Positions 51,844 to 64,000 of a stretch of 64,000 bases of DNA are shown here, one piece after another. Each line of letters starts with the position of its first letter. Position 1 is the stretch's first letter. The DNA lies in NCBI GenBank assembly GCA_045600445.1, contig JAZRXZ010000182.1, positions 1,659 to 65,658 of the forward strand, in the 5' to 3' direction. The translations under genes were made by a program, and so were the position numbers. The notes beneath the pieces were generated by a model that was not told the origin of the DNA, did no database searches, and worked only from the letters and a program-made list of their open reading frames with translations. This stretch comes from Bacteroidales bacterium. Its GTDB lineage: Bacteria; Bacteroidota; Bacteroidia; Bacteroidales; UBA3663.

Positions 51844-52026
51844 CTTAAAAAATTAAGAATAACCATAACACAATACCTTAAATAACGCAACCTGAAAGAC
51901 CTGAATATCTAATACAAGCCTCACAAAGGCACATGTGACACACTAAAAAAGAAGTTCATTTTTCCTCAGGAACGCAACCCTGAGGGGGGAAAGTAAAAAG
52001 GGCGGATCGAGAGATCCCCCCTTTTT
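51844..52026 (+). ncRNA. Candidate ~180-nt orphan sRNA
   Basis: Canonical TTTG(51806)-20 bp-TAtcTTTG(51830) promoter; no ORF (the only ATG is followed by TGA); internal hairpin cctcagg/cctgagg; ends at a terminator. Confidence 0.45.
51995..52026. terminator. Bidirectional terminator
   Basis: aaaaagggcggatc-gaga-gatccccccttttt, just beyond the MATE stop codon. Confidence 0.8.
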
Positions 52027-52029
52027 GTT

Positions 52030-53397
52030 TTAACTCTTAACTTTATCCCATGAACTTCCCTTGAGCCTCCACAAGAAGATCGCTCCTCGGAAACAGAGCT
52101 CGATGGCCATAGCAATCCACACACCCTTGAGACCCATCGTGCCAGCCATCAGCGCTGCCAGCGTGATACGTACGGCCCAGATAGAAGCGAGATTCATCGT
52201 GCAAGGAATCTTAGTATCACCCGCGCCGACAAAGACTCCATAGCAGACAATGGCTGCGGCAAAGCCTGGTTCGGCCCAAGCCTCGATACGGAGCACATCG
52301 GTTGTGAGCTGCTGCACCAGCGCATCGGGAGACATCAACTGCATCACCCATGGTGCTGTGACATACATCACCACCGCCATCAGCGTCATCACTCCCACGC
52401 CTGCTGCCACGGTGATATAGGCAAAGCGTCGAGCCAAGAACTTACGCTTAGCTCCTAAACTCTGACCTACCAGCGTCGTAGCAGCATCAGCCATGCCATA
52501 ACCAGGCATGTAGCAGAGGCTTTCGACAATGATACCGAAGCCATTGGCCGCCAGTGCCACCGTACCTAACGGAGCAACAATGATGGTGCTAGCGATCTGC
52601 GCTCCACACATGATGACGTGCTCAATACCCATCGGTCCTGCGATGTTAAGACACCAGCGGAGCGTGACCTTGTCTGGTCGGAAACTGCGCTTGCCGTCCT
52701 GTCGGAGATTCATTTCAGGCGAACAGACCGCCGCGTACCACATCGTCAAAGACGTGGTTACGATCTGCGCAGCCACCGTTCCTAACGCGGCTCCGAGTAC
52801 TCCCATTCCCAACTGGAAGATCAGAATATAGTTGAATACGACATCGAGCAGACACGTCAGCGCCTGCATCATGGCAGGGATCTTGACATTGCCCGAACAA
52901 CGCAACACGCCTGCCGACAAAGACATCATCTGATGCAATGGCAGCGTGAGGCAGAAGATGGCGAAGTAGAGCGTCGAGTTGTGGCAGATCTCCGGATCGC
53001 CTCCCAGCCAGATCGGGAGCCAAGGCGAGATACAGACACCTAACACCATCAGCAGCGAACTGAATGCCAACGAAGTGGTGATACCTTGACGATAGACGTC
53101 TCTCGCTCCCGGGAAATCATTGCCACCGACATGGTGCGCCACCTGCACATAAAAGCCCGTCGACACGGAGTGCGACAAGCCTCCCAACAGCCACAAAGAC
53201 GTCGAAACCAACGCAATAGACGCCGACGCCGTGGCTCCCATCGAACCCACCATAGCCGCATCGATATACTCCATCGCGATGGTGGAGAGCTGCGAGAGCA
53301 TGGCAGGGAACGACAGCAGCGCGGCCAGCTTGAACTGGTCACGCGTAGAGAGATGTTTGCCGTTGCGTATCAGCGCGAGGAGTTCGTCCTTGGTCAT
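52030..53397 (-). CDS. MATE family efflux transporter
   Basis: About 12 TM segments; D..MVG..G..A.A, LR..G..K.P, DVVFNYILIF..GV.GAA and LVGQSLGA. Confidence 0.92.
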   Translation of the reverse strand: MTKDELLALIRNGKHLSTRDQFKLAALLSFPAMLSQLSTIAMEYIDAAMVGSMGATASASIALVSTSLWLLGGLSHSVSTGFYVQVAHHVGGNDFPGARDVYRQGITTSLAFSSLLMVLGVCISPWLPIWLGGDPEICHNSTLYFAIFCLTLPLHQMMSLSAGVLRCSGNVKIPAMMQALTCLLDVVFNYILIFQLGMGVLGAALGTVAAQIVTTSLTMWYAAVCSPEMNLRQDGKRSFRPDKVTLRWCLNIAGPMGIEHVIMCGAQIASTIIVAPLGTVALAANGFGIIVESLCYMPGYGMADAATTLVGQSLGAKRKFLARRFAYITVAAGVGVMTLMAVVMYVTAPWVMQLMSPDALVQQLTTDVLRIEAWAEPGFAAAIVCYGVFVGAGDTKIPCTMNLASIWAVRITLAALMAGTMGLKGVWIAMAIELCFRGAIFLWRLKGSSWDKVKS

Positions 53398-54584
53398 TGA
53401 TTCTCTTTGATCCAGTTGACAAAGCGCTGCAAAGCCTCAGCGAGTGTAGCACGGCTGGTAGCCAGATTGATGCGCAAGTGATTCTCGCCAGCCTTGCCAT
53501 AGATGGTTCCTTCTGTGAACCAGATCTTAGCTTCCTGCTGCAGTCGATGGCTGAGTTCCTCGCTCGTCAGACCTGGCAGCACGTCGCTATAATTTACCCA
53601 CATCAAGTAAGTGGCCTGTAGGTCGGCGATCTTCAAAGCCGGCACCTCCTTATTTAAATAATCACGCGCGAAAGCGTAGTTGCTCCACACATACTGGCAG
53701 AGCTCCTCCAGCCAAGGCAAACCTTCGTCGTATGCTGCCATGATGGCTTCCACACCGAAAGGATTGACGTCGCAGGTCTCATTGATATTGATGGCACGGT
53801 CGATCTTTCTGCGCAAGTTAGTTTCTGGCACGATGATGTTGGCATTCTGCAAGCCAGCGATGTTGAACGCCTTGCTTGGCGAGGTGCAGATGCAGTAGCG
53901 GAGGCCTTCCAAACCTGCTTCCTTGTCCGATGCCACAGCGCCGAATGGCACATAGAGCGTACCCGGTGTCGTGAGCTCGTTGTGAATCTCGTCGCTGATG
54001 AGCAAAATACCATGCTTCTGGCAGAGCTGACCTACGCGGATCAGTTCCTCGCGGTTCCAGATACGACCTGCTGGATTCTGTGGATTACAGAACAGCAGCA
54101 CCGTGGTCTTGACATGCGAGAGAGCGGTCTCAAGCGCCTCCCAGTCGATGTCGTAGGTCATCATCTGACCCTCTGTAGTTTCTATCAATGGCACGTCAAT
54201 CTCGCGGCAACCCGCATTGCGGATCAATGTATAGAACGCGTTGTATACAGGCGATAGCACCACCACGTTATCTCCCACCTGGCACTCCGCCTTGAGGATA
54301 GCAGCGATGGCAGGGATGACACCGATGGTATAAAGAATCTCCTCAGCCTTGATGCGCCACTGATGGCGCTGCCAAAACCAACGGACGATCGACTGATAGT
54401 AGTCAGCCGGCACGAGCGTATAGCCATAGCATGGATGCATGGCACGCTTCATCACCGCTTGCTGCACACAGGGGGCCGTCGCAAAGTCCATATCAGCCAC
54501 CCACAATGGCAGCACGTCTGGCATCTCGTCCCACTTCACGCTGCGGGTATTGCGGCGGTCGGGAGTATGATCGAAATCGAACAT
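53394..54584 (-). CDS. MalY/PatB family PLP-dependent C-S lyase (cystathionine beta-lyase)
   Basis: KWD, PLWVADMDF, CNPQNP.G, SDEIH, SPSKAFN and ATYLMW. Confidence 0.92.
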   Translation of the reverse strand: MFDFDHTPDRRNTRSVKWDEMPDVLPLWVADMDFATAPCVQQAVMKRAMHPCYGYTLVPADYYQSIVRWFWQRHQWRIKAEEILYTIGVIPAIAAILKAECQVGDNVVVLSPVYNAFYTLIRNAGCREIDVPLIETTEGQMMTYDIDWEALETALSHVKTTVLLFCNPQNPAGRIWNREELIRVGQLCQKHGILLISDEIHNELTTPGTLYVPFGAVASDKEAGLEGLRYCICTSPSKAFNIAGLQNANIIVPETNLRRKIDRAININETCDVNPFGVEAIMAAYDEGLPWLEELCQYVWSNYAFARDYLNKEVPALKIADLQATYLMWVNYSDVLPGLTSEELSHRLQQEAKIWFTEGTIYGKAGENHLRINLATSRATLAEALQRFVNWIKENQ

Positions 54585-54608
54585 TTGATGTTAATTACGA
54601 ATTACGGA

Positions 54609-55460
54609 TTACAAATTACTGGCCTCAACGATGGCGTTGGCTGGCGCTTTCTGATTCTCGTCGATGATCAACTCTCCGACCTTACCCTCCACCTTGATAG
54701 TTCCTGAGGTAGGGTTCTTGATCGAAACCACGTCACCCTTGATCGTCGCATTGACCTTTGAATACTCAAACATCAGATTAGCATCTTCGCCAAACGTACA
54801 GTCCTCCAGAATGAGACCATCCACATAGCAGAGCAACTGCTCGCCAGTCAAGTGGCAGCGCACCAGACGGATGTTCTTGCCATACCACGCCAGGTACTCG
54901 CCATTGAGCTCCGAGTCATAGATCGTCACGTTCTCGCTCTCCCAAAAAGCATCCTTCGAGTTAATCACAGCGTTGTGAATCTCTACGTTCTTAGCATACT
55001 GGAATGAGTAGTTTCCGTCCTGGCGATAGTCATCGATGCGAATGTTCTCCGAGTGCATGAAGAGATAATCCGCCTTGGCAATCTCCACATTCTTCAGCTT
55101 GATATCGCTACAATCCCAAAATGTCTCCAGCGCATTTGGGAACTTACAGTTCTCCACCTCGATACCCGTCATCCTACGGAACATCTTAGGCGCATCGACC
55201 TGACAATTAGTCATCTTCAGGTCCTTGCTATACCAAAGGCTGCTTCGTGCGCTCTCGGCAAAATAACTGTTGTTGACCTTAAAACCGTATGTTTCCCAAA
55301 ACACGTACTTCCCTTCAAAACGGCAATTTTCTGCCTCAATGTTCTTCGATTCTTTGATCGATGACTCACCCACGTGGATAGTCACCTCTTCAAGACGCAA
55401 ATCGCGGGAAGCGTAAAGGGGACGCTCCCCGCCAAATTCTTGGTTTTTGATTATTTGCAT
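54609..55460 (-). CDS. DUF3737-like beta-helix protein
   Basis: FGGERPL, GES.IKE, DAPKMFR, SKDAFW and GEYLAW; directly upstream of the PatB-like gene. Confidence 0.8.
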   Translation of the reverse strand: MQIIKNQEFGGERPLYASRDLRLEEVTIHVGESSIKESKNIEAENCRFEGKYVFWETYGFKVNNSYFAESARSSLWYSKDLKMTNCQVDAPKMFRRMTGIEVENCKFPNALETFWDCSDIKLKNVEIAKADYLFMHSENIRIDDYRQDGNYSFQYAKNVEIHNAVINSKDAFWESENVTIYDSELNGEYLAWYGKNIRLVRCHLTGEQLLCYVDGLILEDCTFGEDANLMFEYSKVNATIKGDVVSIKNPTSGTIKVEGKVGELIIDENQKAPANAIVEASNL

Positions 55461-55478
55461 GATTCTATTTTGAGTTAT

Positions 55479-56690
55479 TCACGATTCTCCAAGTATCGTG
55501 AAACCATTTTCCGAGAGTACGCGACAGATCTCATTGATATGTTCCTGATCGCGTGTTTCCATCGAGATACGCAACACGCATGAGTTGACATTGATAAACG
55601 CGTTGGTACGCTCGTGCAGGACGCCTGTGACGTTTGCACCCAGGTTGGCAATCAGTTGGCTGACCAAGGTCAACTGACCCGGACGGTCAGCAATCTCCAG
55701 CGACAAGGTACAGAGACGACCACCCTTCTGCAGACCTCGGTTGATGATACGGTTGAGCATCGTCACGTCGATGTTACCACCGCTCACCACACAGACAGTC
55801 TTCTTGCCTTCGAGCGGCAAGCCTGCAAACATAGCAGCAGCCACAGATACGGAACCAGCGCCCTCGGCAATCATCTTATGCTTCTCGAGCAGATGCAGAA
55901 TAGCTGCACAGACCTCATCATCGCTCACCGTCACAATGCCATCGACATACTTCTGGCAGAGGCTGAAGGTCAACTCACCTGGCTCCTTCACCGCAATACC
56001 ATCAGCGATGGTGCTGACGCTATAGAGTCGCTCAATCTGACCATGAGCGAGGCTCTGCTGCATACTTGGAGCACCGGCTCCCTGCACGCCCCAGACCTTG
56101 ATATTAGGATTGAGCTGCTTGGCAGCGTATGCAATACCGCTGATCAAACCGCCACCTCCGACAGGGACGATGATGTTATCGACATCCGAGAGTTCGTTGA
56201 GAATCTCAAGAGCGATGGTTCCCTGACCGGCAATGACCTTTGCATTATCGAAAGGATGCACGAAAGTCATGCCACGCTCGTCGCGCAACTTCAGCGCATG
56301 AGCATAAGCGTCGTCATACACTCCTGGCACCAGACAGATCTCAGCGCCATAGCTGCGCGTCGCCTCTACCTTACTGATAGGAGCTCCCGCAGGCAGGCAG
56401 ATACAGCTCTTGATACCATACTTTTGTGCCGACAGAGCCACACCCTGCGCATGGTTTCCAGCCGAACAGGCAATCACACCGCGCTCCTTCTCCTCATCGC
56501 TCAACTGTGAGATCATGTAGCTGGCGCCACGCACCTTAAACGAACCCGTTACCTGCAGGTTCTCTGGCTTGATATAGATCTCGCAACCCGGTTTGATGGT
56601 GGGAGCCACCACCAAAGGGGTTTCGCGAATGATATTCTTAAGGACAAACTGAGCGCGATAGATTTCCTGAATCGTCAGTTCATTCTCCAT
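55479..56690 (-). CDS. ilvA: Threonine ammonia-lyase with C-terminal ACT domain
   Basis: K.ENLQ.TGSFK.RGA, SAGNHAQG, PVGGGGL, SGGNID and DRPGQL. Confidence 0.94.
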   Translation of the reverse strand: MENELTIQEIYRAQFVLKNIIRETPLVVAPTIKPGCEIYIKPENLQVTGSFKVRGASYMISQLSDEEKERGVIACSAGNHAQGVALSAQKYGIKSCICLPAGAPISKVEATRSYGAEICLVPGVYDDAYAHALKLRDERGMTFVHPFDNAKVIAGQGTIALEILNELSDVDNIIVPVGGGGLISGIAYAAKQLNPNIKVWGVQGAGAPSMQQSLAHGQIERLYSVSTIADGIAVKEPGELTFSLCQKYVDGIVTVSDDEVCAAILHLLEKHKMIAEGAGSVSVAAAMFAGLPLEGKKTVCVVSGGNIDVTMLNRIINRGLQKGGRLCTLSLEIADRPGQLTLVSQLIANLGANVTGVLHERTNAFINVNSCVLRISMETRDQEHINEICRVLSENGFTILGES

Positions 56691-56730: not shown

Positions 56731-57678
56731 TCAGAGAGTCTCCAGATAAGCTGCTACGTTCTTCTCGATACGAGCTGAAATGTCATTGTTATCAGCAGCT
56801 GGCACGAACTTCTCGCCTACGATGTGCTCGTAAAGCTCGATGTAACGGTCACTTACGCTCTGAGCATAAGCATCAGAGATCTCTGGCATTACGTCGCCCG
56901 GACGGTTCATGAAGTTGTTTTCGATCAACCACTGACGAACGAATTCCTTCGAGAGCTGCTTCTGTGGCTCACCTGCCTCGAACTTCTCCTGATAACCCTC
57001 GGCATAGAAGTAACGTGAAGAGTCAGGAGTGTGGATCTCGTCGATCAGGATCACCTTGCCATCGCGCTTACCGAACTCATACTTGGTATCAACGAGGATA
57101 AGACCCTTGCTAGCAGCGATCTCAGAACCGCGCTGGAAGAGTGCACGGGTGTACTTCACCATGGTCTCCCAGTCCTCCTTGCTTACGAGGCCCTGTGCAA
57201 TGATCTCCTCAGCAGAGATATTCTCATCGTGACCCTCATCAGCCTTAGTAGTTGGAGTGATGATTGGCTCTGGGAACTTCTCATTCTCGCGCATACCCTC
57301 TGGCAACTTCACGCCACAGAGCTCACGGCAACCATTCTTATACTCACGCCAAGCCGAACCGGTGAGATAGCCACGGATGATCATCTCTACGCGGAAACCC
57401 TCAGCCTTCAAGCCAACGGTAACCATTGGATCAGGAGTAGCGAGCTTCCAGTTAGGAACGATGTCGCTGGTAGCGTCGAGGAAGCTGGCAGCAATCTGAT
57501 TCAGACACTGACCCTTGAAAGGAATACCCTTTGGCAGGATAACGTCGAATGCCGAGATACGATCAGTAGCTACCATGACCATAAGGTCATCATTGATGTT
57601 ATAAACGTCACGAACCTTGCCGTGATAAACAGACTTCTGACCCTTGAAGTTGAAGTCGGTGCGAGTAAGTGCAGACAT
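56731..57678 (-). CDS. purC: Phosphoribosylaminoimidazole-succinocarboxamide synthase
   Basis: [39 protein letters not shown] and SKEFVRQW. The start is 57678 (MSALT). Confidence 0.96.
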
Positions 57679-57964
57679 AATGATATTTATTATTTGATAT
57701 TTGTTACCAATTATTTGATATTTATTATAATATCCGCGCCAAAGATACATAAAAAAACAATAGGAAGGATTTTTCTTCTCAAATATCCAGCCTATTGTCA
57801 TTATCTTTATTCAAAACTTCGGTGTTTTGACATGTGTAAATATTCTTTTAAATATCAGAATTGCGATAATATGCGGAGAAATATCTATAATACCAATCAT
57901 GGCAGATTTTGAAAAATTGCAATACTCAAAAAGCATTTCATCGCATTTTATACAAAGTTTTAAA

Positions 57965-58023
57965 CAAATTATCCGATTTGGATAATCCAATTCGGATAAT
58001 TTGAAAAACATTGCGTACTTTTG
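57965..58023 (+). promoter_or_regulatory. 39-bp palindrome (candidate operator) upstream of the ATPase -7 element
   Basis: caaattatccgatttggat-a-atccaattcggataatttg (19-bp arms, one mismatch); TActTTTG at 58016-58023. Confidence 0.55.
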
Positions 58024-58039
58024 CAAAAAAATAATACGC

Positions 58040-59152
58040 ATGAACCCATTCCTTACCTTTGGTTATCACTCTGCAGAATACTTCTGCGACAGAGTTTCTG
58101 AGACGGCTGAACTCACAAGCCTGCTCACTAATGGCAATAATGTGACGCTGATTTCTCCGCGTCGCATGGGAAAGACTGGCCTGTTGTATCATTGCTTCGC
58201 CCAATCAGAGATCAAGGAGAAATACCATACATTTATTATCGACATCTATGCCACCAAGTCGCTTCAGGACATGGTTTATACCATGGGCAAATCCATCGTC
58301 AGCGCCCTGAAACCTCGTGGCCGTCATGCCTTTGACAAGTTTCTCGATGTTGTGACCTCACTGCGTCCAGGCATTTCGTTCGACGAAGCCGGTAATCCTT
58401 CCTGGAATGTAGAATTAGGCGACGTGAAGACCCCTGCCATCACGCTCGATGAGATCTTCAGTTATCTCGAACATGCTGACAAACCTTGCTTGGTAGCCAT
58501 CGACGAGTTCCAATCCATCACCGAATACCCAGAAAAGAATATTGAGGAATTACTGCGCACCTACGTGCAACGTTGCCACCAGACCTGGTTCGTCTTCTGT
58601 GGCTCACAGCGCAGCATGATGGGCGAAATGTTCCAGTCGCCAGCACGTCCATTCTACCAGAGCACCACCAACCTCCCTCTTTATGCCATACCTGCCGATA
58701 AATACATCCCATTTGTCGAGCATCATTTCAAGCAATCAGACAAATACATAGCCAAAGAAGCCATAGAGGAAGTCTATAACCGCTTCGATGGCACAACCTG
58801 GTATCTACAGAAAGTGATGAATGAGCTCTGGCGCACCACCCAAGAAGGCCAGCCTTGTCTCCTGTCCGACGTCGCTCCTGCCATCAAACACATTATCGAT
58901 TCAAATACAGAGACCTATCAGGACATCCTCTATCAACTCTCTACCCGCCAAAAAGAGCTTCTCCTCGCCATCAGCCGCGAAGGTAAAGCCACGCAGATCA
59001 CCGGCTCAGCTTTCATCAAGAAGTATCGTCTCTCATCTGCCAGCAGCGTGCAGAAAGCCTCCGAGATGCTCATCCGTCAGCATATTATTACCAATGACAA
59101 AGGCACCTACGAAGTATATGACAAATTCTTCGCGCAGTGGTTGGCGGAGTAA
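58040..59152 (+). CDS. AAA-family ATP-binding protein with probable C-terminal winged helix
   Basis: NPF..G, FCDR..E, Walker A SPRRMGKT, Walker B IDEFQ, CGS and a C-terminal YEVYDKFFAQWL. ATG at 58040. Confidence 0.85.
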   Translation: MNPFLTFGYHSAEYFCDRVSETAELTSLLTNGNNVTLISPRRMGKTGLLYHCFAQSEIKEKYHTFIIDIYATKSLQDMVYTMGKSIVSALKPRGRHAFDKFLDVVTSLRPGISFDEAGNPSWNVELGDVKTPAITLDEIFSYLEHADKPCLVAIDEFQSITEYPEKNIEELLRTYVQRCHQTWFVFCGSQRSMMGEMFQSPARPFYQSTTNLPLYAIPADKYIPFVEHHFKQSDKYIAKEAIEEVYNRFDGTTWYLQKVMNELWRTTQEGQPCLLSDVAPAIKHIIDSNTETYQDILYQLSTRQKELLLAISREGKATQITGSAFIKKYRLSSASSVQKASEMLIRQHIITNDKGTYEVYDKFFAQWLAE

Positions 59153-59282
59153 TACATGGCTTTCTTCAATACGAAGATATGATCTGCTGAGAAATACAGA
59201 CCTATGCCGTTTTTATTGGGACCTCCTTTCAAAATAACAATATATCCCTATCTAAAATACTGAAAGAAGTAGAGTTAAGCAA

Positions 59283-59319
59283 AGATTCAGTTATTAAGAA
59301 TTATTTAATAACTGAATCT
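59283..59319. terminator. Inverted repeat between the convergent ATPase and the Dnd-like operon
   Basis: Perfect 15-bp arms agattcagttattaa / ttaataactgaatct. Confidence 0.6.
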
Positions 59320-59356
59320 GATGATAAATAATAAATGAGGTAGAATACTCTATATA

Positions 59357-60937
59357 TTATATAAGGTGTGTCACCTTGATCTTCTTCCACTTCTTACCCA
59401 ATCCCAGTTCGATGGCATCAGGATTCTTGATCAGGAGCTCTCCCTTTTGCAGATTGCCAAGGTCAGAACGCAGTTCCTGCAGTTCCTTGCCACTCACTCC
59501 GAAGAGGTCTTTTAGTACCTGGTCATTGATACTCTGTTGCTTCATCAGCAACGGATACTGAGCGTTAGCATAGAAATCAAAATAAGGAGATTTAAAGCTA
59601 TCCATATTCTGTGTAGCCAGAATGACACTCATACCCTTATTTCGTCCTACAGCAATCAGATCTCGCAGAGGCTTGTTATCAAACGAGAGCATATAGTGAG
59701 CCTCGTCAATGATCGTGAAATGACGCACCTCGACACATTCCTCGCTGACGGCTTGTTTCTGTAGTTTCTCGTAGATGTTATTCAACTTCGATACCACAAA
59801 ATATACGATTGCCTTAGCGATAGGTCCGTCTTTCTGGAAGCGTCCCAAGTCGATGATATAGCAGTTCTTCAGCAAGTCAATACTGTCTGCCTCTGCAAAC
59901 AGACGGCTTCTGATCAGCTGCTTCAATACCGACGTCACGCTGTCATCCTTATCCTGCTGACGCTCTGGCAGCAGTGCCAGATACTTCTTCAGAATCAGCT
60001 CAAACGTAATAGGAGCACCACCCGTCTGCTTATAAGCCTCAATGATGGCCTCACTCAGATGATTGCTCATGTTGGCACTGATACGCGCCTGATCAATGGC
60101 ACAAAGAGCCGTAGCCATGCCCGTAGAATACAGGTTGATCTCATTCTGCACAGGAGCGGCTGAGAAGTCCTTGAACGGCGTAAAAGGTAAAGGCTCCTCC
60201 ATAGGACGGAGGATAGCATGAATGTCCGTGTCAAACTCAGCCAGCCATCCCGCATTCTGCGGATCAGAGAACTCTCCCTTATAGTCAAAGAACAGGAAGT
60301 TGACCGGATAGCTCGAATCTGTTGACAGATGGCGCAGCTGCTGTATCAGCACAGCCAGCAGATTAGACTTTCCGCTACCCGTGGTTCCTGCCACCAGGAT
60401 CTGGCTATTTGAGATATGACGACTGTTCACGCTCAGCATAGCCTCCATCTCATCCTCATAATGACCGATAATCAGATCCAGCATCGGAATCTCTCCATTT
60501 GCTCCACGCTGCTGCACACCCTGACTCATCAGCCATTCGTCCAGCGCTCCTTCCATCAGGAGTTGTCCACCTTTCAGTATCTCTGCATTGACAATTCGGC
60601 TCAACAATGCAGGTGACTCAGAGTCCACTCCCTCATAGCGCATTTTTATCAATGCCGAGAAGAGCGGTTTCATATTATCCTTGGTAAAAAAACTCGGTGT
60701 AAAACGCAAGTAACGCTTAAAAGCAAACGTCGGCAACGCCTCAATATCCCTAGCCTCAGCCTGTGACAATCCTGCCAGCAGACATAGTCGCATCATCTTG
60801 TTCCAGGTCAGCGACAGCGGACGTGTACCACGAGGATAGTTCTTCAGATTAAGCCTATCCTCCAGCAAGTTCTTCAGTGCGTTCAGATCCTCCTGCAGCG
60901 TATCTGCCTGTATACATTTTTCAAGTTCAAGTAACAT
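59357..60937 (-). CDS. DndE-like N-terminal domain fused to a HerA/FtsK-type (DUF87) ATPase
   Basis: N-terminal WNKMMRLCLLAGLS..LFSALIKMRY..IVNAEILKGGQLL resembles DndE helices. The C-terminal part has Walker A GTTGSGKS, FDYKGE, Walker B IIDEAH, GRNKG and LATQ. Confidence 0.7.
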   Translation of the reverse strand: MLLELEKCIQADTLQEDLNALKNLLEDRLNLKNYPRGTRPLSLTWNKMMRLCLLAGLSQAEARDIEALPTFAFKRYLRFTPSFFTKDNMKPLFSALIKMRYEGVDSESPALLSRIVNAEILKGGQLLMEGALDEWLMSQGVQQRGANGEIPMLDLIIGHYEDEMEAMLSVNSRHISNSQILVAGTTGSGKSNLLAVLIQQLRHLSTDSSYPVNFLFFDYKGEFSDPQNAGWLAEFDTDIHAILRPMEEPLPFTPFKDFSAAPVQNEINLYSTGMATALCAIDQARISANMSNHLSEAIIEAYKQTGGAPITFELILKKYLALLPERQQDKDDSVTSVLKQLIRSRLFAEADSIDLLKNCYIIDLGRFQKDGPIAKAIVYFVVSKLNNIYEKLQKQAVSEECVEVRHFTIIDEAHYMLSFDNKPLRDLIAVGRNKGMSVILATQNMDSFKSPYFDFYANAQYPLLMKQQSINDQVLKDLFGVSGKELQELRSDLGNLQKGELLIKNPDAIELGLGKKWKKIKVTHLI

Positions 60938-60950
60938 AAGCCGTAGGTTT

Positions 60951-62954
60951 TTATGGGTTCAACATGATTCCGAAGTAACCTTGTTCTATCGTCGTACACT
61001 GTTCCTCTCTGTTTCTATCCAATGTATAGGTCTTGGCAATGAAAGGCTCCAGGCGCTCATAGTCCTCACTGGTCCTGATCTCTGTATCCGTAGAGAGCAG
61101 GATGGTCTGCTCTGCCAGTGATGGGAAGTAATTCTCCATAATCGTCGTACGGCTATCCTTATCCAATACACCCATCACCGTATCAATCATTACTGGTGGA
61201 TCATAATCACCCAGTTCATGTAGCACCTTGAGCAATACCTGTATGACCACCTGCTTAGCACCCGCATTCAGCGTAGAGAGCGCAATCTCATTACCTGCCT
61301 TGTGATAGATCTTGAAGGTCAGATCCTGCAACTGCTCCGACAGCTCCACTCGTCCTATCACGCCACGATACGCTGCCAGATTCTGGTTCAGATACTCTCG
61401 CATCTTAGCCTCAATCTGCGTCTTCTTCAGTCGCAGCAAAGTGTTGGCTACATCATCAAAGAAAGGTTTCATCTCCACTAGCGTATCATACTTCGGATCA
61501 GGCTCCTGCTGTATCTGTATGTCATACTGGCTAATCTTATGCTGCTGTTTCTTGATCTGATCTTCCTGCGCCTTGATGGCCTCATTCAGTCGTGCTATCT
61601 CCACCTCATTATCTTCGTATGCTTTCAGCAACGCGTAGTCATTACCACTGATCTGCTGCTGCATCAGCTCAATGTCGGTTTTCAACGTCGGCAGATTATC
61701 GATCTCCAGATTGATCTGCGCATGATTGATTGCCAGCTGAGGCAAACTATTGAAGGTCTTACGGCTTACCAAAGCGCGCAGCGCCTCTACCTCCTCATTA
61801 TCCAGATATGCATAGTTATCAGCGGTTGCCGCTGGCTGTGTCTGCTTCTGCATCACCTGACTCACAATCTTTCCCTCATCCACACCCATCAGGAACGGAC
61901 AGTCCTCCTGCAGCAAGCTTACAATCTGGTGTGTCAGTTCCTTGACCACAGGTTCATCCACCTGCTGCTTCTGGCTATTGGCCAGTTCTGTCTTATTCTT
62001 CAGCACCAGACTCATCTCTGCTTGGCGCAGCTTCAGCAGGTGTGGCAGGAATACGTTGATCTCCAAAGATTCTACGATGGCCTCCAGGTCCTTCAGGTAC
62101 TGGCGGCTGCGGTCTTCCACCTCTGTGATCTTCTGCTGTGTCACTCTGATCTTGTTTCGCAGCGTCTCTTCCTCCTGCTTGCCATTCTTCAACATGTTAT
62201 ACATCTGGCTGTTGTTGGCCGAGTAGAGCAGACACTTGTCCAGATCATTCTTCAGCTGTTCCAGTTCACGCTTCTTGAGGTCGGTGTCATCCACCAGAGC
62301 ACGATACTCCTTCTGCTCATTCTCCTGTTTCAACTTCTTCTCTGCATATTCCTGTTGCAGATGTTCGCACACACGGCTCAGCTGTATATACTTATTGAAG
62401 CCCATCACATTCTCAATATTCTCCTTGATCACATGGTTCAACTGATCCTCCTTCAGCAGATTACCTGCCTCCATAGCATCGAAGAGGAAGTAGCGGCTCA
62501 GCTCCTGTGGCAGATTGGCCTTGATGATTTTCTGCACCACCTGCTGCATCTTGGCACGTTCTGTAGGAGGCGTAGCAGGTCCATAGGCAAAGACATTGCC
62601 ATTCATATTCAGACGCACATTCTCACCCACTTTACCATTTGGCATCAGTCGGTAAGTACGGCTCAGGATATATTGCTGTTCACGTCCTAACACACGTCCT
62701 GAGAAGGTCAGTTGCAGCACGATCTCCGAGTCAGCGCTCTGCTTTGTACCCATGTTGAGCAACAGATGGAAACGCTTGGCATCCATCTTCTCCAAGCCAT
62801 ACAGCGCACCATAGATGGCTTCAAACAGCGTGGTCTTACCACCACCATTCTTACCACCTATCAGGATGATCGGACGCTCTGGCTCTACGTTCAGATCCAG
62901 ATCAAGAGACTGATAGGTCTTATAGTTCGAGACTTTGATATTCTTAATGAGCAT
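60951..62954 (-). CDS. dndD: DndD-like SMC/Rad50-type ABC ATPase
   Basis: Walker A GGKNGGGKTT, YFLFD, long coiled coil, signature LNAGAKQ, P.MIDT.MG.LD, NYFP and Q.ILLSTDTEI, typical of DndD C-termini. Confidence 0.8.
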   Translation of the reverse strand: MLIKNIKVSNYKTYQSLDLDLNVEPERPIILIGGKNGGGKTTLFEAIYGALYGLEKMDAKRFHLLLNMGTKQSADSEIVLQLTFSGRVLGREQQYILSRTYRLMPNGKVGENVRLNMNGNVFAYGPATPPTERAKMQQVVQKIIKANLPQELSRYFLFDAMEAGNLLKEDQLNHVIKENIENVMGFNKYIQLSRVCEHLQQEYAEKKLKQENEQKEYRALVDDTDLKKRELEQLKNDLDKCLLYSANNSQMYNMLKNGKQEEETLRNKIRVTQQKITEVEDRSRQYLKDLEAIVESLEINVFLPHLLKLRQAEMSLVLKNKTELANSQKQQVDEPVVKELTHQIVSLLQEDCPFLMGVDEGKIVSQVMQKQTQPAATADNYAYLDNEEVEALRALVSRKTFNSLPQLAINHAQINLEIDNLPTLKTDIELMQQQISGNDYALLKAYEDNEVEIARLNEAIKAQEDQIKKQQHKISQYDIQIQQEPDPKYDTLVEMKPFFDDVANTLLRLKKTQIEAKMREYLNQNLAAYRGVIGRVELSEQLQDLTFKIYHKAGNEIALSTLNAGAKQVVIQVLLKVLHELGDYDPPVMIDTVMGVLDKDSRTTIMENYFPSLAEQTILLSTDTEIRTSEDYERLEPFIAKTYTLDRNREEQCTTIEQGYFGIMLNP

Positions 62955-62956
62955 AA

Positions 62957-63169
62957 CTAAATCTTTTTAAGTGCTTTCTCAATGATCTTCTCTACCGTAG
63001 CATCCTCTACGTCCAAGTCATTGGTCTTGGCTGCATGATACTGTTTTAGCACCTCTTCCTCTATCCACTCTGGCATCAGCTTATGCTTCTCTGCCAACGT
63101 AGCTATTACCTCCATGTCCTCCTTACGTATTCCGTAGTTCAGGAAGTTGCCATCTAATCCTTTTGCCAT
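62957..63169 (-). CDS. 70-aa small helical protein coupled to dndD (DNA-modification-system-associated small protein-like)
   Basis: Co-oriented, 2-bp gap to the dndD ATG; NFLNYGIRKED..W..E.LK.YH..IEKAL pattern. Confidence 0.7.
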   Translation of the reverse strand: MAKGLDGNFLNYGIRKEDMEVIATLAEKHKLMPEWIEEEVLKQYHAAKTNDLDVEDATVEKIIEKALKKI

Positions 63170-63208
63170 ATAGAAAATTGTAAATGGTAAATATAAAAAT
63201 GGTAAATG

Positions 63209-64000
63209 TCACAGCATCAGCGTTGTCCATCCCGTGATGTCATCCGTGTCTGTGATGTCCAGCTCCGGATACTTCCACGTTAGGCCGTCCTGTATCAACA
63301 CACCGCCCTTCAGTTTCGTGCCGTTCTTGTTCTGCTCCTCCATGAAGCGACGCAGAGCATTGTGCTTCGATGGTGCTTCCGGGTCACTGCCACGGGTTTT
63401 CGTGTCAAGCAGATAGATGCTGCCATCCTTCATATAGATAATGAAATCCACATAGAAAAGGCTGTCTCTGCCACCCGTGTCTTTATAAGCTACAGCAAAG
63501 TGATCAGCTCCATTATCACCATTCTTATACCACCACGCTACATTCTCTTTCTTATCAATCCATTCTGCGAAGTTCTTCTCTGGGTTCGATGCTTCTATCT
63601 GTTCATAGAACGGACGCAGAGCATGCTTATGAATGGTCTTGTCTTTGTTCTGGTAGAAATCAGGATTATAGCTACGTGAGTCTGGCAATGACCAGAAATT
63701 ATGTGTGATGGTAGCTCCCTCCGTCGGCTTTCCTTGTCTGGCTTGCAGCTTCAGTTCATAGCCTGCCAGTGTCTTCTTGATCAGATCCTCCCACTTTGAC
63801 ACATTCACTTTGGCCAGATACATACGCATGGCTTCCGCTTCCGTCATTCCCAAGTATTCATCAGCAAAGGCAATCAATGCACCACGCAATACAGGCGTTG
63901 AGTCGAACTTAGAGAACTTACCTACATGCGCCCTGCAGAACAGCGTAAAGAGTCGGCTGGTTTCCGAGGCGTTACGTGTCAATCTGGCTTTCTCCACCAC
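63209..64000 (-). CDS. C-terminal part of a type III restriction (Res)-like subunit with a PD-(D/E)xK nuclease; start lies beyond the window
   Basis: S.PEK.F..W.D....V.WWYKNGD..F.V.Y..FYVDFII..LLDTK nuclease signature. The frame is open to the window edge, so the track's start is an edge artefact. Confidence 0.78.
   Translation of the reverse strand: MVEKARLTRNASETSRLFTLFCRAHVGKFSKFDSTPVLRGALIAFADEYLGMTEAEAMRMYLAKVNVSKWEDLIKKTLAGYELKLQARQGKPTEGATITHNFWSLPDSRSYNPDFYQNKDKTIHKHALRPFYEQIEASNPEKNFAEWIDKKENVAWWYKNGDNGADHFAVAYKDTGGRDSLFYVDFIIYMKDGSIYLLDTKTRGSDPEAPSKHNALRRFMEEQNKNGTKLKGGVLIQDGLTWKYPELDITDTDDITGWTTLML

Follow-up and report, generated by a model that had tools for sequence, protein, structure and literature searches.

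A predicted methylation-based restriction operon, found mostly in Bacteroidota, that joins type III-like Mod and Res to three Dnd-related proteins

The window analysed here, a stretch of 64,000 nucleotides from a Bacteroidales bacterium, ends in four tightly packed minus-strand genes (Table 1). The intergenic gaps of 39 nt (Res to Sp), 2 nt (Sp to DndD) and 13 nt (DndD to DndE::HerA) in the ORF list are exactly those given in an earlier note on this DNA, which had described a four-gene operon. The four genes stand and the extent does not: the contig, read past position 64,000 as that note had advised, holds the helicase domain of Res and, beyond the window, a fifth gene encoding a type III Mod, which overlaps Res by 4 nt (contig ORFs). 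The order on the minus strand is Mod, Res, Sp-DndD, DndD-related ABC ATPase and DndE::HerA/FtsK. Gene content, order and motifs make it highly probable that this is a five-gene defence operon of the methylation-based restriction-modification (R-M) type, a restriction pair joined to three proteins derived from the Dnd machinery, with the sulfur-adding genes absent, and widely conserved. Our literature search found no experimental study of the five-gene operon.

Table 1. Features of the operon. Positions are those of the window, except where prefixed G000:C182, which count along the contig of the source genome.
Feature	Position	Strand	Basis or remark
P0001, last gene of the operon, 526 aa	59357-60937	-	ORF list and translation
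HerA/FtsK ATPase domain, P0001 residues ~150-526	59357-60490	-	invariant Walker residues, fold matches
DndE-like N-terminal domain, P0001 residues ~1-140	60518-60937	-	profile comparison and fold searches
P0004, DndD-related coiled-coil ABC ATPase, 667 aa	60951-62954	-	ORF list
P0002, Sp-DndD small protein, 70 aa	62957-63169	-	ORF list
Res, C-terminal part, 263 aa in the window, gene continuing past the edge	63209-64000	-	ORF list
PD-(D/E)xK nuclease core of Res, D715 ... D729-x-K731	63398-63448	-	conserved residues
Full Res gene, 793 aa	G000:C182:64867-67248	-	ORF on the contig continuing past the window
Type III Mod, fifth gene, outside the window	G000:C182:67245-69116	-	to 69338 if an upstream TTG is the start

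The Res-like PD-(D/E)xK nuclease read from the partial gene was borne out by the complete protein, which has a Pfam ResIII helicase domain (8.5e-19; PADLOC REase_III 7.8e-19) and a conserved D...DxK motif: across 43 sequences, conservation reaches 95% or more in helicase motifs I, II, III and VI, and it does so at each of D715, D729 and K731 in 43 aligned Res proteins. The C-terminal region weakly matches the NCBIfam BPTD_3080 restriction endonuclease family (6.6e-05), and phmmer against solved structures gave no match at E<=0.01. Res is, by prediction, an SF2 helicase with a PD-(D/E)xK nuclease, type III-like. As judged by sequence comparison, it is also a dedicated subfamily of its own: 33 of 401 Bacteroidota genomes match it at E<=1e-10, and besides the source genome a near full-length match (43% identity over residues 1-790) occurs only in G275, which carries the system; in G223 the match is split into two segments (36% and 29% identity) at the edge of a contig, and the remaining 30 matches cover the helicase core only, at 25-35% identity. 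In Mod, the DPPY and FxGxG motifs are intact. Four operons that were compared have three Mod alleles whose target-recognition regions (residues 176-400) share 25-27% identity, and in the same operons the HerA domains are 96-99%, the Mod catalytic parts 89-99% and the DndE domain 92-96% identical. Since the target-recognition domains are swapped and the DndE domain stays constant, sequence specificity is predicted to reside in Mod, and DndE would not choose the methylated sequence.

P0004 had been called a DndD-like SMC ATPase. The likeness to DndD holds (PADLOC DndD 1.1e-65 over residues 1-661, with PbeC at 1.8e-56; 195.4 bits on TIGR03185, under the cut-off of 245.85), but "SMC" was imprecise: the protein is a coiled-coil ABC ATPase, and the available part of PMC10853773 places DndD among the ATPases of the DndD/CxC kind. 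Neither the P-loop nor the Walker B residues vary among 25 relatives, and no cysteine is invariant in them; P0004 has no CxxC. The small protein P0002 scores 22.0 bits on Pfam PF20306 (Sp-DndD), under the gathering score of 27.2, and its orthologues reach 37.8 bits (L108) and 41 bits (L105); the gap from Sp to DndD has a median of 8 nt across loci. A model of the Sp-DndD complex scored 0.68, against 0.00 for the best of three controls, and puts Sp on the head-proximal coiled coil of DndD, with at least 92% of contacts agreeing between runs and a partner pLDDT of at least 80. Of 157 solved complexes 116 attain that score, and of 215 mismatched pairs 2 do, a calibration that is only rough for Sp-DndD because our own alignments and three chains were used. 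The model supports the prediction that Sp binds the neck of DndD.

The fusion of DndE and HerA noted in P0001 is supported by different means for its two halves. For HerA/FtsK the evidence comes from Pfam (DUF87 1e-08, FtsK_SpoIIIE 1e-06) and PADLOC (DndH C-terminus 5.3e-27, mad8 1.8e-23). The full-length AF2 model (mean pLDDT 88.2) has the DndH C-domain as its best Foldseek match (7es4, E 2.9e-22, TMt 0.83), the HerA domain matches the folds of DndH-C, VirB4 and HerA, and Walker A residues G184, G189 and K190 and Walker B residues D411 and E412 are invariant in 63 close and distant relatives. The Pfam search of P0001 did not hit a DndE domain, which was recognised instead by an hhalign comparison with the N-terminal parts of distant relatives that are Pfam-DndE-positive (probability 77.5%, E 1.9e-05, 79 columns) and by fold. 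An AF2 model of this domain from the close relatives' alignment only (pLDDT 88.2, pTM 0.83) has solved DndE structures (4lrv, 7x4e, 5wtu) at Foldseek ranks 1-10 (TMt 0.59-0.73, best E 0.014); in VIA-align, 5wtu_A gave Z 9.9 (rmsd 2.6, 104/104 aligned) and 7x4e_A Z 8.2, the first non-RHH row being rank 4 (6oaw_B, Z 4.1). The profile comparison and the two fold searches support a predicted divergent DndE (double ribbon-helix-helix) domain at the N-terminus.

The gene order proved to be conserved. In a sample of the best 80 of 338 loci, drawn from one protein family whose kin are not independent and with genes called by a simple ORF script, the four partners are all found upstream, with order and orientation kept, in 49 of the 50 loci that offer 6.6 kb or more of upstream DNA; taken singly, in loci with enough DNA, DndD is upstream in 70/71, Sp in 68/69, Res in 58/59 and Mod in 49/50. 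The HerA-type proteins of the conserved loci are 52-98% identical, and the carriers are mostly Bacteroidota, while the titles of a few records name Comamonadaceae, Opitutales, Alphaproteobacteria, Lachnospiraceae and Kapaibacterium. This co-conservation of Res with dndD and DndE::HerA excludes a chance adjacency within a defence island, which had been considered at the outset.

A full match to a described system had also been considered at the outset, and no PADLOC-DB 2.0.0 model matches the operon in full; a fusion of DndE and HerA next to a DndD-related ATPase has been published in NAR 2024 as part of phosphorothioation (PT) systems. Its likenesses and differences are as follows: (i) In type III R-M systems of the EcoP15I/EcoPI type, as here, Mod belongs to the beta-class N6/N4 methyltransferases and carries an exchangeable target-recognition domain in its middle, Res joins an SF2 helicase-like ATPase to a PD-(D/E)xK nuclease at the C-terminus, and mod is placed before res and overlaps it. 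However, here three more conserved genes follow res, and Res has ~790 aa, in contrast to mostly ~840-920 aa for the other type III Res ORFs of the Bacteroidota sample, the helicase core alone being similar. (ii) The C-domain of DndH, from DndFGH, is the closest counterpart of the P0001 HerA/FtsK domain in sequence models and fold, but DndF and DndG are not present here. DndH itself has ~1,700 aa and many other domains. (iii) PT systems of the DndC/DndD/DndE::HerA type ("clade-3" HerA/FtsK in the available text of PMC10853773, section 22) also have a DndD-related ATPase followed by DndE::HerA/FtsK, the latter of ~505-540 aa as in the operon; PT-type DndD plus DndE::HerA loci occur in 10 of 401 Bacteroidota genomes. 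These differ in having DndC upstream and no Sp, their DndE::HerA is 25-31% identical to P0001 in the ATPase domain only, and their DndE domains pass Pfam (25/37 at the gathering score), whereas that of the operon does not. (iv) PbeABCD/CxC-ABC-ATPase systems, as characterised in the available part of PMC10853773, also have a nuclease-SF2 helicase, a small protein, a coiled-coil ABC ATPase and a DndE-type protein, and some have DNA methylases. The PbeA-B-C-like layout that had been suggested for a Dnd-derived scaffold is supported in outline, but by its predicted proteins the operon is not a member of PbeABCD so described: the nuclease is of the PD-(D/E)xK and not of the HKD type, the ATPase scores best as DndD and has neither the CxxC hook nor a conserved cysteine, and DndE is fused to HerA/FtsK. 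Moreover, the small protein is of the Sp-DndD family, well conserved, neither disordered nor fast-evolving, and the methylase is a type III Mod rather than a cytosine-5 or permuted N4 enzyme. (v) MANTIS (Gao_RL) and MADS, in the available parts of their descriptions, resemble the operon in outline, with a methyltransferase, a helicase-nuclease and extra ATPases, but the protein families are otherwise unrelated: MADS comprises eight genes, kinase and OLD-like modules among them (PMC13662399), and of the eight only mad8, through the HerA domain of P0001, and weakly mad2 have a match in the operon.

We tentatively favour, at a shade below an even chance, an integrated mechanism on the restriction side, methylation-based and non-PT, that uses a Dnd-derived DNA-handling module. 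The exchangeable target-recognition domain of Mod would determine the short sequence at which this enzyme marks host DNA, and Res would be an ATP-dependent nuclease cutting DNA that lacks the mark. The clamp formed by DndD, to whose neck Sp would bind, may make up one co-evolving DNA-handling module with the DndE::HerA pump; this module would capture or translocate DNA, would not specify the methylation sequence, and would either hand DNA to Res or license it.

It is somewhat unlikely that the locus instead holds two separate systems travelling together, an ordinary type III R-M system and a self-contained Sp/DndD/DndE::HerA system whose effector is another or lies elsewhere. Mantel correlations of pairwise distances, whose p-values ignore relatedness among loci, are 0.94 for DndD-HerA and 0.61 for Mod-Res, against 0.45-0.48 for Res versus DndD or HerA and 0.40-0.46 for Mod versus DndD or HerA; the looser correlation between the halves fits module exchange and would be compatible with two cooperating but separable systems. 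Among the best 80 of 338 loci, unrelated genes are present at the Res|Sp junction in many, and the trio is paired with other partners in L042, L105 and L107. However, all parts keep one order in nearly every locus with sufficient DNA, the Res subfamily approaches full length only in the other carrier G275 and the one contig-edge case, and Pfam and PADLOC scans of the trio recognised no nuclease or other effector domain. Even L042, the one solid exception, has an SF1 helicase, a PIN-domain protein and an AAA ATPase ahead of Sp, DndD and DndE::HerA; because these other nuclease and helicase genes replace Mod and Res there, the position upstream of the trio can be read as an effector slot, and the swap suggests that it would hold an effector.

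An integrated system in which the trio acts on the modification side, loading or activating Mod on host DNA, much as DndD and DndE assist DndC in PT systems, while Res is an ordinary type III nuclease, we regard as unlikely. By ancestry such a role would be equally natural, since DndC directly precedes DndD and DndE::HerA in 5/5 canonical Bacteroidota PT loci with the upstream ORF scanned; DndD-DndE cores lacking PT genes have been proposed to direct other modifications (PMC10853773, section 24, available text), and the MANTIS methyltransferase requires an AAA+ ATPase and a co-regulator, according to the abstract of 10.64898/2026.09.23.753747. In contrast, L042 has the trio with no methylase among its four upstream ORFs, Sp is confined by ORF layout to non-PT variants, and the DndE domain hardly changes when the target recognition of Mod is swapped, although a sequence-blind loader would still fit. 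The restriction-side mechanism is also to be set against a non-defence role in the DNA processing of an integrative mobile element, in which the HerA/FtsK pump and the ABC clamp would work in transfer or segregation and the R-M pair would be an addiction module. The source genome and L002 have a VapE-like gene upstream of Mod, L018 and L037 have primase genes of the DUF3987/BT4734 type upstream, and a 15.6-kb record deposited as an unverified bacteriophage holds all five genes. Yet this role is very improbable: in the best 80 of 338 loci the five genes stay constant amid changing neighbours, those neighbours that recur are defence genes (GmrSD, OLD, McrBC and RmuC in the flanks; Abi_2, YhcG, RhuM and Schlafen at the Mod|Res and Res|Sp junctions), and tblastn of 72,556 plasmid records gave no match at E<=1e-20.

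Finally, a PT system enclosing a type III R-M module, which the earlier note had offered as one option and which would need dndC and dndA to act from elsewhere in the genome, is not supported and is exceedingly improbable: DndD-like and DndE-like proteins do define PT modification modules, and a distant dndC may have been missed in a genome that is 78.6% complete, but dndC is absent from the operon, TIGR03183 (DndC) has no match in the source genome or in 9/10 other carriers, no PAPS-reductase gene is among the scanned flanking ORFs (representatives of recurring neighbour clusters, best 80 of 338 loci), and no close housekeeping enzyme can replace DndC, as stated in the available text of PMC10853773, section 24. 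The exception, G406, has a DndC at 419.8 bits on a contig other than the operon's, a placement that the PT reading could accommodate and a match which shows that the same search is able to detect DndC.

The right end of the window carries four close-packed minus-strand genes, separated in the ORF calls by gaps of 13, 2 and 39 nt, exactly as the earlier note had described, and the rest of the 71,071-nt contig, on which the window occupies G000:C182:1659-65658, was read past the window end and extends this run to five genes: Mod, Res, Sp (a small Sp-DndD protein), DndD and a DndE::HerA fusion, hereafter P0001. The ORF truncated at the window edge encodes the last 263 aa of Res, a 793-aa protein with a Pfam ResIII helicase domain (8.5e-19), and directly upstream lies a type III Mod, a 697-aa ORF that overlaps the start of Res by 4 nt; a helicase domain and a mod gene were among the features that the note had proposed to look for beyond position 64000. 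A scan for sigma-70 promoters, which does not model Bacteroidota promoters, returned 16 against 14.0 expected from shuffles; terminators numbered 7 against an expected 5.6, so that neither count differs from the shuffles. No RNA run is listed among the sequencing runs carrying the locus, an absence that is uninformative as to expression. Among the scanned ORFs adjoining the operon there is no DndA/IscS cysteine desulfurase.

Coordinates of the operon genes, of neighbouring genes and of the compared loci (window positions unless a contig or locus is named)
Feature	Position	Strand	Source
DndE::HerA ORF, 526 aa	59357-60937	minus	ORF call
DndD ORF, 667 aa	60951-62954	minus	ORF call
Sp ORF, 70 aa	62957-63169	minus	ORF call
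Res C-terminal part, 263 aa, cut by window end	63209-64000	minus	ORF call
ATPase_2 (PF01637) gene, 383 aa	58001-59152	plus	
VapE-like gene (PF05272)	G000:C182:69701-70918		
Flavobacterium urocaniciphilum locus	L042:15-11554		
Sp-bearing loci with neither DndC nor Mod/Res	L105:4750-10798; L107:9375-15435		
Phosphorothioation (PT) loci	L103:11046-14820; L109:7121-10133		

Of 495 candidate stretches in a genome collection with one genome per species, a scan with P0001 as query confirmed 338, and with relatives at 338 places among 185,579 species the system is widespread. We took the best 80 of the 338 as our locus set and used tblastn to locate the window's proteins in each. These loci represent one protein family, 52-98% identical in the last gene, and are not independent samples; among those with enough DNA, same-strand partners lie upstream in nearly every case, DndD in 70 of 71, Sp in 68 of 69, Res in 58 of 59, Mod in 49 of 50, and all four together in 49 of 50. 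Because the partners recur in this way, chance adjacency of the five genes is rejected, and with it the possibility, raised in the earlier note, that Res is no more than a neighbour of dndD and DndE::HerA in a defence island. By record title most loci are from Bacteroidota, with single loci titled Comamonadaceae, Opitutales, Alphaproteobacteria, Lachnospiraceae and Kapaibacterium.

A few loci depart from this arrangement. L042 keeps Sp, DndD and DndE::HerA (together, the trio), but where Mod and Res would be it has a 1,094-aa SF1 helicase, a 729-aa PIN-domain protein, an ORF of 212 aa and a 536-aa AAA ATPase; downstream are genes for a UvrD-type helicase, a protein with a DarT domain and an ADP-ribosylglycohydrolase. 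L073 is a truncated remnant. L007, L023 and L058 each have DndD in two ORFs, in L023 together with a shortened Res, and L036, uncounted for want of upstream DNA, lacks Res, has pieces of Mod immediately ahead of Sp and ends in a truncated last gene; on simple ORF calls, L007, L023, L036 and L058 appear to be decayed copies. Single unrelated genes are inserted at two of the junctions. Between Mod and Res, the loci L007, L009, L019, L021, L023, L048, L050 and L081, and also L010 and L012, have either an Abi_2 gene (297-301 aa) or a gene for a YhcG/DUF1016 nuclease (336-341 aa); between Res and Sp, a RhuM gene (about 327-365 aa) is found in L016, L018, L020, L022, L028, L030, L037, L044 and L081, and Schlafen/AlbA_2 proteins in L051 and L076.

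The Mod protein matches N6_N4_Mtase (1.2e-32) and PADLOC MTase_III (2.5e-90), and its translation has motif IV (DPPY) ahead of motif I (FxGxG), the beta-class order, with the variable centre placed by the conservation profile at residues 176-400, between both motifs. Relatives align only from residue ~70-79, which probably puts its true start at methionine 75. Res matches PADLOC REase_III at 7.8e-19 within residues 155-390 only; across 43 sequences its SF2 helicase motifs I, II, III and VI and its C-terminal PD-(D/E)xK residues D715/D729/K731 are at least 95% conserved, and phmmer found no PDB chain for it at E<=0.01. Relatives of Res at E<=1e-10 are present in 33 of 401 Bacteroidota genomes. 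Besides the source genome, only G275, itself a carrier of the operon, has a near-full-length match (43% identity); the match in G223 consists of two pieces at a contig edge, and the remaining 30 cover the helicase core only, at 25-35% identity. By sequence, Res would thus constitute a dedicated subfamily. In type III restriction-modification systems the asymmetric site is hemimethylated, and cleavage needs two inversely oriented unmodified sites.

P0001 has a HerA/FtsK ATPase domain according to both Pfam and PADLOC, and in the full-length model (pLDDT 88.2) this part most resembles the C-domain of DndH (7es4, E 2.9e-22, TMt 0.83). Pfam DndE (PF08870) gives no match at E<=0.01 on P0001, whose residues 1-150 lack any Pfam match, nor on three closer relatives; it also gave none in the source genome, but there the search's own controls went unmatched too. 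Despite this silence, the DndE-HerA fusion proposed in the earlier note is borne out by four lines of evidence: (i) a library-wide search yielded same-length relatives, 25-31% identical over the ATPase domain, and 29 of the 37 distant relatives scanned have an N-terminal Pfam DndE at E<=0.01, 25 of them at the gathering score; (ii) hhalign aligned the N-termini of the close family with the DndE-positive ones over 79 columns (probability 77.5%, E 1.9e-05); (iii) AF2, given 29 close relatives and no others, modelled residues 1-150 with pLDDT 88.2 and pTM 0.83; and (iv) with this model Foldseek returned solved DndE structures at ranks 1-10 (TMt 0.59-0.73, with weak E values, the best 0.014), while VIA-align, over 48,161 chains, placed DndE 5wtu_A first (Z 9.9, rmsd 2.6, 104/104 aligned), followed by DndE 7x4e_A (Z 8.2) and an F-plasmid relaxosome chain (Z 7.3), before a drop to Z 4.1 at rank 4. 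The N-terminus of P0001 is accordingly modelled as a DndE fold, a double ribbon-helix-helix.

The 667-aa protein is a full-length relative of DndD (PADLOC DndD, 1.1e-65) rather than an equivalog, scoring 195.4 bits against TIGR03185, under the cut-off of 245.85. In the PDB phmmer found weak Rad50 head matches only; a CxxC zinc hook is absent from the translation, and no cysteine is invariant or nearly so among 25 relatives. Sp scores 22.0 bits against Pfam Sp-DndD (PF20306), under the gathering threshold of 27.2, and its orthologues in L108 (72 aa) and L105, which align with it, reach 37.8 and 41 bits; a protein Atlas search placed it with Sp-DndD clusters at 0.82-0.84, which under the 0.9 level is a lead only. 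The Pfam Sp-DndD family reportedly goes back to Krishnan et al. 2020. The gap between Sp and DndD has a median of 8 nt, with 274-928 nt in six loci. In a complex model of three chains (DndD, the DndE domain and Sp, the last scored as partner), the predicted Sp-DndD interface scored 0.68 against 0.00 for the best of 3 controls. In the calibration, which holds only roughly for a model with its own alignments and three chains, 116 of 157 solved complexes came up to that mark, as did 2 of 215 mismatched pairs. The runs share at least 92% of contacts, partner pLDDT is at least 80, and the modelled interface involves the base of the DndD coiled coil (residues 188-199 and 487-509) and nearby head residues. 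The model supports binding of Sp to DndD.

Loci that do have phosphorothioation genes form a separate and distant clade. A profile of distant DndE::HerA proteins matched 16 of the 401 Bacteroidota genomes, 10 of which have a full-length canonical fusion; in all five canonical loci with the upstream ORF scanned, a PAPS-reductase-type DndC directly precedes DndD, and in three more an ORF at that place is of DndC-like size, size being the only criterion. Two further loci, L105 and L107, have neither DndC nor Mod/Res: they encode a 734-746-aa protein (Sigma70_r4, HhH, HA), a 60-aa Sp-DndD (41 and 26 bits, respectively), DndD and a Pfam-positive DndE::HerA, and L107 has a 995-aa SF1 helicase downstream. 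Sp thus goes with the non-PT variants. In the PT loci L103 and L109, DndC, DndD and DndE::HerA are followed by HATPase_c_3 and Methyltransf_35 proteins and then, in L103, by RmuC or, in L109, by an HNH protein; DndB is present instead in L101 and L104.

The operon shares features with several known systems and differs from each of them: (i) with type III restriction-modification it has in common the Mod motif order and central target-recognition domain and a Res with SF2 helicase and PD-(D/E)xK, although this Res resembles other Bacteroidota Res in the helicase core only. (ii) It shares the DndE fold with Dnd phosphorothioation (DndABCDE), but lacks DndC, its DndD falls under the equivalog cut-off and its DndE is unmatched by PF08870. 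(iii) The order nuclease-helicase, small protein, ABC ATPase and DndE cognate is that of PbeABCD, to which the operon adds a HerA/FtsK domain; however, PbeA is an HKD endoDNase with an SF2 helicase, whereas Res has PD-(D/E)xK, no PLD/HKD match and no match to PADLOC PbeA, and the ABC ATPase of PbeABCD has a CxxC zinc hook at its coiled-coil apex where the operon's DndD has none. The operon reads as the PbeABCD layout made from different parts. (iv) The clade-3 HerA/FtsK of Rakesh, Aravind and Krishnan (NAR 2024, PMC10853773) is likewise fused to DndE next to a DndD-related ABC ATPase, but the available part of that paper places the pair in PT systems, whereas the operon's clade has Mod/Res and no DndC. 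(v) Membership of MADS (mad1-mad8) is rejected: mad8 on the HerA domain (1.8e-23) is the only real match, beside a weak mad2 on Mod (1.3e-05), and the operon otherwise matches none of the eight genes, which include kinase and OLD-like modules in the available part of PMC13662399.

The DndE::HerA fusion beside a DndD-related ATPase is already in print, in PMC10853773, which cites Krishnan et al. 2020 (PMC7544218) for it. In its available part, that paper also describes DndD-DndE cores without PT genes in numerous taxa, which may direct other modifications, and re-annotates PbeABCD as HKD nuclease-helicase, small protein, CxC ABC ATPase and DndE, to which cytosine methylases are added in some cases; there, 'type III restriction' occurs in the reference list only. 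The five-gene layout may already have been drawn in Krishnan et al. 2020 or in the supplements of PMC10853773. Literature searches under Sp-DndD, PF20306 and the DndE-HerA family names found no other paper, and none reporting experiments on the five-gene system.

What we have, then, is a conserved five-gene unit with intact active-site motifs, no PT enzyme and a swappable target-recognition domain in Mod. In the near-identical operons L001-L004 identity is 89-99% for the catalytic parts of Mod and 92-96% for the DndE domain, while the target-recognition region of Mod is only 25-27% identical between three alleles, one shared by L001 and L004 and the others in L002 and L003; because this region swaps as DndE stays, methylation specificity would lie in Mod and shift without a matching change in DndE. 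We favour a role of the trio on the restriction side, since the trio is without an effector of its own, other nuclease and helicase genes replace Mod/Res in L042, and DndE does not track methylation specificity. Mod would mark self DNA, Res would cut unmarked DNA, and DndD and Sp with DndE::HerA would form a sequence-blind module that captures or pumps DNA and so feeds or licenses Res. Going further, we tentatively suggest, at somewhat less than an even chance, that the type III-like Mod/Res depends on a DndD-Sp clamp and a DndE::HerA pump, the trio being a portable sequence-blind capture module. DndE::HerA would then be a hexameric double-stranded DNA pump tethered to a double ribbon-helix-helix domain, Sp would bind the neck, and the partners of the module would be DndC, type III Mod/Res, a PIN-domain protein with an SF1 helicase, or an HTH/HA protein.

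A serious rival puts the trio on the modification side, where it would load Mod. The analogy is to DndC, which is served by DndD and DndE, and to the methyltransferase of MANTIS with its two accessory proteins in the available part of 10.64898/2026.09.23.753747; the constancy of DndE across Mod alleles and the exchange of Mod/Res in L042 are what incline us to the restriction side. Mod/Res and the trio may also be two systems travelling side by side. Distance matrices from 43 complete loci gave Mantel correlations of 0.94 between DndD and DndE::HerA, 0.61 between Mod and Res and 0.40-0.48 across the two halves, with a permutation p of 0.001 that ignores relatedness; the system behaves as two modules, always together and sometimes re-assorted. 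Of the two alternatives in the earlier note, a Dnd-derived scaffold, here joined to a restriction enzyme, stood and is extended by Mod and the full Res, and a PT system with an embedded type III module is dropped, as dndC (TIGR03183) has no match in the source genome (78.6% complete) or among the flanking ORFs scanned and occurs in one of ten other carrier genomes (419.8 bits), on a contig other than the operon's.

The operon offers a natural experiment on the role of DndD and DndE without phosphorothioation, and a DndE that does not track modification specificity is relevant to the view, proposed in print, that target specificity is set by DndE. If the five genes are integrated, a classical restriction enzyme would have harnessed a DNA pump and an ABC clamp that forms loops, and the system would belong with MANTIS, MADS and BREX, multi-ATPase methylation systems that are currently under dissection; should Mod/Res depend on the trio, it would represent a distinct ATP-dependent class of restriction, with three different motor ATPases in one machine, and genetics showing this dependence would raise its interest. 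Judged from the model matches, a pipeline based on PADLOC-DB 2.0.0 would probably report type III restriction-modification and an orphan DndD, a split annotation that would mislabel the locus as partly PT.

As for the neighbourhood, a VapE-like gene (1.2e-34) follows upstream of the Mod ORF after a 362-nt gap; it is kept at 89% identity in L002, and DUF3987/BT4734-type primase genes take its position in L018 and L037. These genes upstream of Mod suggest carriage of the operon on integrative mobile elements. Plasmid records gave no tblastn match at E<=1e-20, and the sole match in the phage collection, L131 (MT835906.1), has the complete set of five in operon order, with proteins 40-56% identical to those of the window; it is a 15.6-kb unannotated record from a faecal metagenome, labelled 'UNVERIFIED: Bacteriophage sp.'. 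On the other side, the ATPase_2 gene converges on the operon's end, and L002 has a 374-aa ORF at that position in matching orientation. The G+C content drops to 0.40-0.45 at window positions 57000-59500; the operon has 0.47-0.49, and the housekeeping genes at 52000-56500 have 0.52-0.56.
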